A DNA stretch of 64,000 nucleotides from Escherichia phage EC.P1, in the sequence record PQ657772.1, one strand, 5' to 3'. Position numbers and translations under genes: made by a program. The notes under the pieces were generated by a model. The model did no database searches. It saw only the letters and a list, made by a program, of their open reading frames with translations, and was not told where the DNA came from. Shown here in pieces: positions 21,563 to 21,646 of the stretch (within the stretch, counting starts at the first letter, position 1; the number at the start of each line of letters is the position of its first letter).

Positions 21563-21646
21563 AAAGTAATTATACATTTTATTGTACAATATAAAAAGGT
21601 CTTAAAAAGTAATTATACATTTTATTGTACAATACAAAAAGGTCTT
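21563..21646. repeat. tandem direct repeat, two copies of a 41-bp unit (43-bp period, one mismatch)
   Basis: aaagtaattatacattttattgtacaatataaaaaggtctt repeated at 21563 and 21606; overlaps 3' end of CDS 21579..21995. Confidence 0.8.

Follow-up and report, generated by a model that had tools for sequence, protein, structure and literature searches.

A 43-bp tandem duplication at the 3′ end of an orphan gene in an Asteriusvirus-type jumbo coliphage

Two near-identical copies of a short sequence lie side by side across the 3′ end of a small gene in Escherichia phage EC.P1 (PQ657772.1), within a 64,000 nt stretch that was analysed as a whole and is here called the window. The arrangement raises the question of whether a regulatory site has been duplicated, whether the repeat is a footprint of recombination, or whether it is an ordinary duplication that happens to fall at the end of a gene. 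We favour, at a probability of roughly three in four, an inherited and probably near-neutral tandem duplication that arose once, has been spread by recombination and is not a regulatory device.

The repeat and the changed end of gene A

The 4-kb stretch around the repeat is 84–97% identical to Asteriusvirus jumbo coliphages (121Q, PBECO4, fEgEco12, WPEC5 and others), and the window comes from a phage of this type (121Q/PBECO4 group). The genes in this part of the window are on the minus strand, in the order lysozyme-like gene, HPF/RaiA-like gene, genes A, B, C, D, E, F and G, and the gene for a CCA-adding enzyme. The features needed here are:

18799..19914, minus strand, CCA-adding enzyme
21173..21544, minus strand, gene B, next downstream of gene A; likely start TTG at 21544..21542, with a GAGGTG Shine-Dalgarno sequence at 21554..21549
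21557..21559, minus strand, TGA that serves as the gene A stop in fEgEco12 and ph0011, single-copy relatives sharing the downstream cassette of the window
21561..21603, minus strand, copy 2 of the 43-bp unit (AAGACCTTTTTATATTGTACAATAAAATGTATAATTACTTTAT); translated with a register shift of one base as RPFYIVQ and a stop, then 18 nt of untranslated spacer
21579..21602, minus strand, seven new codons (AGA CCT TTT TAT ATT GTA CAA, encoding RPFYIVQ) and a new TAA stop, produced by the frame shift of copy 2
21579..21995, minus strand, gene A, encoding a 138 aa orphan protein, from the open reading frame and the PHROG profile phrog_36582 (unknown function)
21604..21646, minus strand, copy 1 of the 43-bp unit (AAGACCTTTTTGTATTGTACAATAAAATGTATAATTACTTTTT); residues K117 to F130 and the start of L131 of gene A
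22014..22070, minus strand, sigma-70-like promoter TTGACT-17-TATAAT (22070..22042) and GC-rich hairpin with T-run (22041..22014), followed by GGAG and the gene A ATG
22050..22382, minus strand, HPF/RaiA-like gene (PF02482 Ribosomal_S30AE, E = 1.6e-10)

The last of these is a phage-encoded homologue of ribosome hibernation/modulation factor, and is labelled 'sigma 54 modulation protein', 'putative sigma 54' or 'ribosome-associated inhibitor A' in relatives. The gene B start given above, TTG 21544, lies six nt after GAGGTG and agrees with the 372 nt annotation in relatives; the start in the program-made open reading frame (TTG 21556) is probably wrong.

The segment 19916..21995, which separates the HPF-like gene from that of the CCA-adding enzyme, is a hypervariable cassette region, as seen across 11 loci (L001–L011). 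Genes B and C are absent from 121Q, PBECO4, BF17 and A4, JNE01 is without E, F and G, and WPEC3 lacks A, B and C and has another gene after the same promoter and hairpin. The gene content of relatives changes directly 3′ of the repeated unit, which is followed by either the B–C cassette or gene D. The region also contains two pairs of paralogues, genes G (19916..20038) and C (21048..21173), whose 40 and 41 aa proteins are 68% identical, and genes F (20050..20472) and E (20459..20866), whose proteins of approximately 135–140 aa are 34% identical. These pairs suggest that this region underwent segmental duplications at an earlier time.

Tandem Repeats Finder (TRF) reported an array at 21563..21646 with a period of 43 bp, 2.0 copies, 97% matches, no indels and a score of 161. 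One other array in the window scored at least 50, a weak repeat at 36916..36959 (period 18 bp, 2.4 copies, 80% matches) that is probably an in-frame coding repeat, and the 43-bp array is the sole strong tandem repeat of the 64 kb. The 41-mer at the core of the unit was found twice in the window with at most three mismatches, and in none of 100 dinucleotide-preserving shuffles. The two 43-bp units are adjacent and head-to-tail with no spacer (sequence across the copies TTACTTTTTAAGACCTTTTTAT), and differ at unit positions 12 (G/A) and 42 (T/A); their 41-nt cores differ at a single base. Copy 1 of the window has a private A to G change (I121V), and all other two-copy loci have A at that position. 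Copy 1 lies entirely within gene A, and copy 2 is divided between coding sequence (21579..21603) and intergenic sequence (21561..21578). TRF and the shuffles bear out the original prediction of a tandem duplication with a 43-bp period and one mismatch in 41-bp cores, and the coordinates of the copies bear out its overlap with the 3′ end of the CDS at 21579..21995 and with the gap that precedes the following gene.

Where relatives have a single copy, the final 14 residues of gene A (KDLFILYNKMYNYF) come from the 41-nt core, and L or I and a stop come next. Their proteins end in ...NYFL or ...NYFI, whereas those of two-copy genomes end in ...NYFLRPFYIVQ, with the C-terminal end ...YNYFLRPFYIVQ. 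As 43 = 3n + 1, the reading frame enters copy 2 shifted by one base; TAC TTT TTA at the end of copy 1 runs on into the seven new codons, and translation stops at the TAA inside copy 2. The last 18 nt of copy 2 have become spacer, and the TGA at 21557..21559 is out of frame and unused in the window. The distance from the gene A stop to the gene B start is 12 nt in single-copy relatives of the fEgEco12 type and 34 nt in the window, placing the stop 22 nt farther from the ribosome-binding site of the next gene. That the C-terminus had been changed, because the period is not a multiple of three, was confirmed by comparison with the single-copy relatives.

The protein carrying this tail is a lineage-restricted orphan of Asteriusvirus phages, as a profile search of 1.84 billion representative proteins returned one member of the gene A family (one 50%-identity cluster). 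A Pfam search with gene A gave nothing significant, and BLASTP against the neighbouring genes revealed no clear paralogy. The phrog_36582 profile (126 positions) stops at residue 131 of the 138 aa protein, and the 7-residue tail is beyond its end. The AlphaFold2 model of gene A had a pLDDT of 39 and was not usable.

The same frame relationship raises a further possibility, that the junction of the two copies is a programmed −1 frameshift site. Programmed −1 frameshift sites consist of a slippery heptamer, X XXY YYZ, and a downstream stimulatory structure. The junction codons are UAC UUU UUA AGA, and a slip at C UUU UUA would place copy 2 in the −1 frame, which is the ancestral one as 43 = 3n + 1. 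The product would have a duplicated C-terminal tail, KDLFILYNKMYNYFI (the 14-mer KDLFILYNKMYNYF), and would end at the ancestral stop beside the downstream ribosome-binding site. In its U run followed by A, and in its ancestral −1 frame, the junction resembles the sites of dnaX (A AAA AAG) and retroviruses (U UUU UUA). However, its heptamer begins with C and does not have the form X XXY YYZ, nor is a stimulatory structure predicted; the RNA fold of the unit has a z-score of −1.19, and 25 of 200 shuffled sequences fold equally well or better. Neither an upstream Shine-Dalgarno-like stimulator nor an Rfam frameshift element was found at the junction, and TTTTTA is the natural gene end in one-copy phages. 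We regard programmed frameshifting here as highly improbable.

Copy number among relatives and origin of the two-copy allele

The region is held by 32 distinct GenBank relatives (34 phage records). Of these, 28 have one copy of the unit, and four, WPEC5, BF17, A4 and vB_Ec-M-J, have two copies with the same junction. One copy was called where the repeat matched in two pieces spanning 89–103 nt, and two copies where it matched as one full-length piece. In an alignment of nine genomes, a clean 43-bp gap was seen in six (fEgEco12, CMSTMSU, ph0011, JNE01, PBECO4 and 121Q), and the 43 bp were present in the window, WPEC5 and BF17. Six further two-copy loci were found, in three NCBI assemblies labelled E. 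coli (GCA_973721985.1, GCA_011911785.2 and GCA_036253495.1, with contigs of approximately 352–359 kb), two ENA metagenome contigs and one Logan contig. The same junction is therefore present in 11 independently assembled loci (10 besides the window). Scans of IMG/VR, JGI metagenomes and GTDB genomes added two single-copy loci and yielded no three-copy locus, and complete E. coli genomes yielded no match. A protein search returned 12 clusters at 90% identity, eight with the RPFYIVQ tail (RPFYIGQ in one) and four with the NYFL end; the two-copy allele, which makes up 27 of the 52 member sequences, cannot be called rare. Copy number thus varies among related genomes, with two copies shared by a minority of relatives. 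We found no paper on promoters or on the 43-bp repeat in Asteriusvirus.

In eight of the 11 two-copy loci the copies are identical to one another although their surroundings have diverged, and copy 2 is invariant in eight of the 11. This could be due to selection, concerted evolution or recent spread. Locus L017 has a T to G change in copy 2. In L015 (Logan SRR30543657, approximately 1903..1930), 12 nt of copy 2 (ATGTATAATTAC) have been deleted just past the new stop; with them the TATAAT of copy 2 is lost, and the protein is unaffected. Among the single-copy records, that of CMSTMSU (MH494197.1, L003) has single-base losses in T-runs of gene A and the unit, with fragmented gene calls. The record is flagged UNVERIFIED_ORG, and the losses are consistent with homopolymer sequencing errors.

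Short perfect repeats are mis-assembled now and then, and the duplication might have been an assembly or sequencing artefact of the PQ657772.1 record. This is very unlikely. The identical junction in ten other independently sequenced loci, which come from Thailand, Poland, Ireland and elsewhere and include bacterial-isolate assemblies and metagenomes, indicates that it is not an assembly artefact, and the private substitution that distinguishes the two copies in the window would be unexpected in an artefactual copy.

The sequences flanking the arrays bear on how the allele arose. In BF17, A4, L012, L014, L018 and L019, the 43-nt units are identical, and the array, two copies of AGACC...TACTTTTTA followed by TAA, reads as an exact duplication of a gene end of the 121Q/BF17 type. 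The junction, TTTTTA followed by AGACC, can be derived only from a flank of the ...TACTTTTTA type. The window and WPEC5 share this junction, but their copy 2 ends in ...TACTTTATATGATTGAGG, which is the flank type of fEgEco12, CMSTMSU and ph0011 and accompanies genes B and C. As simple duplication of an fEgEco12-type end cannot yield the junction, we infer that recombination of a two-copy allele with a genome bearing B and C gave rise to the window locus.

Further evidence supports recombination. Divergence among two-copy genomes reaches 16% in the neighbouring HPF gene, their gene A is mosaic in its 5′ and middle parts, and the two-copy loci have seven versions of the approximately 20 nt directly downstream of copy 2. 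L017 is PBECO4-like on both sides of the array, yet both of its units are of the AAAATG type and not the AAACTG type of PBECO4, which favours short-patch recombination over an independent origin.

A course of events that would account for these loci begins with an ancestral gene end, ...TAC TTT TTA TAA, in a 121Q/BF17-type flank. The duplication would most likely have had a single origin, in an error of replication or of illegitimate recombination that involved hardly any microhomology. The microhomology at the boundary is 1 nt, an A common to the left flank (GTGAA) and to the end of the unit (TTTTTA), which fits illegitimate recombination without being diagnostic of it. Homologous recombination would then have moved the allele into several genomic backgrounds, and a later recombination, to judge from the junction and the flanks, would have left the fEgEco12-type cassette (genes B and C) abutting copy 2 in the window. 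The consequence would most likely be a tolerated, near-neutral change to the protein tail, with the translation of gene A and the following gene somewhat less tightly coupled.

The 43-bp repeat is thus an ordinary, probably near-neutral duplication polymorphism in a hypervariable early-gene region. Like other short tandem duplications and indel polymorphisms, it has no spacer, a precise single-copy allele in relatives and a length not divisible by three; it creates a new short tail with an earlier stop, and it is polymorphic within closely related phages. It differs from them in that, with 1 nt of microhomology, classical slippage is not evident, and in its presence in several recombinant backgrounds. 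The suggestion that the repeat was a recombination footprint therefore holds in part. It stands for an error of replication or recombination and for a cassette-type recombination junction at the 3′ edge, and does not stand for the scar of an element's insertion or excision.

Instead of a single origin followed by recombination, the site could be a hotspot that has repeatedly gained or lost the same 43 bp, and the two-copy state is found on several backgrounds. Apart from the 43 bp, the NCBI locus L014, with two copies, and L016, with one, show no difference over 3.4 kb (100% identity); L012, also an NCBI assembly, and L013 have 99.9% identity upstream but again not the same copy number. Precise loss of one unit from a perfect tandem repeat occurs easily. 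However, both one-copy cases on the duplication-linked haplotype, L013 and L016, are Logan assemblies, and all nine non-Logan loci with this haplotype have two copies. The k-mer length of Logan assemblies, k = 31, falls short of the 44-nt perfect repeat and makes assembly collapse plausible. Collapse is the likely explanation for the single copies of L013 and L016, and true precise loss is a possible one; if collapse is the cause, it would be a general caveat on copy-number calls from k = 31 contigs. It is improbable that the unit would be gained again and again with the same boundaries and 1 nt of microhomology, and in L017 the units are of the donor type, AAAATG, in a PBECO4-like background. 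We consider recurrent duplication quite improbable and retain a single origin with spread by recombination as the preferred explanation.

Regulatory signals and conservation of the unit

The possibility that the repeat is a duplicated regulatory site, also part of the original prediction, was examined by scanning the locus and 20 kb around it for sigma-70 promoters, defined as −35 and −10 hexamers 16–18 nt apart with at least 4/6 matches each, or an extended −10. The unit itself was not called. It contains a perfect TATAAT, with TTTTTA or TTTTTG 17 nt upstream (3/6 matches to the −35), and its TG is misplaced by one base for an extended −10. The sole sigma-70 call inside the array is a 9/12 site created by the junction, a weak TTAAGA-18-TAAAAT, and promoter-like sites in the region number 10 against 10.9 expected in shuffles. 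Promoter prediction in the related jumbo phages CBB and GAP32 has given a TGAAACG-type motif (PMC5259590). No such motif was seen in the unit, and no recurrent motif-to-TATA arrangement was found within the window.

Inspection of the unit found no T4-late-like TATAAATA, and a terminator scan of the unit found no terminator-like hairpin and no terminator. Rfam covariance models gave no match at E ≤ 1 between 20000 and 23000. In the DNA fold, only the two copies of the palindrome pair, as any duplicated palindrome would. Neither the unit nor its halves have dispersed copies elsewhere in the 64-kb window (at most three mismatches), the unit matches at one place per genome in nearly all relatives, and the right end of the B–C cassette has no similarity to it. 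With no passing sigma-70 site, terminator, Rfam family or significant fold, the proposal of a duplicated regulatory site is unsupported.

The stronger promoter-like sequences of the region have a different form. The promoter at 22070..22042 is likely the source of gene A transcription, and the hairpin at 22014..22041 is an annotated terminator in phage G17. Modules made up of promoter, hairpin, GGAG and ATG recur on the minus strand, at 22014..22070, 29384..29437 and 31773..31828. All six of the 11/12 promoter matches between 12 and 32 kb are on the coding strand (TTGACT or TTGACA-17-TATAAT), and a GC-rich hairpin, T-run, GGAG and ATG directly follow several promoter-like sites, including one of the 11/12 matches.

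In layout, these three modules are similar to the PeSL (promoter-early stem-loop) of T4-type phages, a composite of early promoter and stem-loop terminator that is found at several cassette boundaries (PMC2839356, PMC4122927). The 43-bp unit resembles PeSL in being a short, highly conserved block at a switch in downstream gene content, in a hyperplastic region of orphan early genes. It differs in that it has no passing sigma-70 promoter, GC-rich stem-loop or T-run, is not repeated elsewhere in the window and is coding sequence. Homogenisation at a cassette boundary, if it occurs here, would be reminiscent of PeSL function. A second comparison is with tandem promoters (P1/P2), as the array has two TATAAT hexamers 43 bp apart upstream of a gene. 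The unit differs from these in lacking an acceptable −35 or an extended −10, the density of sites is not above chance, and one natural variant of the array is without the proximal TATAAT.

The DNA of the unit is unusually well conserved. Among 14 diverse loci, its nucleotide diversity (pi) is 0.026, compared with 0.09–0.30 in most of the approximately 870-nt HPF–gene A region, and it ranks sixth of 828 41-nt windows, among the most conserved stretches of that region. All six substitutions seen in it are nonsynonymous (6/6), and its last 18 nt show no variation, including in JNE01, a divergent genome. Such conservation would suit a function at the nucleotide level, or else homogenisation through recombination where cassettes meet; it hints at one or the other, and is not accounted for by a purely neutral reading.

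In another form of the regulatory proposal, the 41-nt block is both coding and cis-regulatory for the downstream cassette, for example as a −10-dominated promoter or as a protein-binding site on the palindrome ATTGTACAAT, and selection has kept the duplicated sites. The perfect TATAAT, approximately 30 nt upstream of the Shine-Dalgarno sequence of the next gene, and the 10-bp palindrome are in keeping with this, as are the conservation of the unit with its exclusively nonsynonymous substitutions, the invariance of copy 2 in eight of the 11 two-copy loci next to seven versions of the downstream 20 nt, and the commonness of the two-copy allele among protein clusters (8/12). Against it, the 3/6 match at the −35 and the misplaced TG leave the site below the scan threshold, in a region where site density is as in shuffles. 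The strong promoters of the region are TTGACT or TTGACA-17-TATAAT, often with a hairpin after them, and no TGAAACG-type arrangement recurs in the window. L015 is without the TATAAT of copy 2, and in the G17 record the nearby hairpin has a terminator annotation but the unit has no regulatory one. The conservation is equally explicable by recombination at the cassette boundary. We therefore think it unlikely that the block is a dual-use regulatory site. In its broader form, in which the cis-acting role of the gene A end could be that of a weak promoter, an operator or a preferred crossover block and the duplication is selectively maintained, the proposal is somewhat more doubtful still. If true, it would mean altered expression of the downstream cassette, uncoupled translation, or two protein tails through −1 slippage.

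Significance for Asteriusvirus genomes

Regarded as an inherited, probably near-neutral duplication, the 43-bp repeat is a handy marker of mosaicism in Asteriusvirus genomes. It also carries a warning, as perfect repeats longer than the assembly k-mer may collapse in k = 31 assemblies. Should the DNA-level conservation of the unit reflect a cis role, the one-copy, two-copy and truncated-copy alleles would be ready-made material for testing it. For the jumbo phages themselves, the locus offers a clean and datable case of an orphan early gene gaining a new C-terminus via a short out-of-frame duplication, with the resulting alleles then shuffled among genomes through short-patch recombination.
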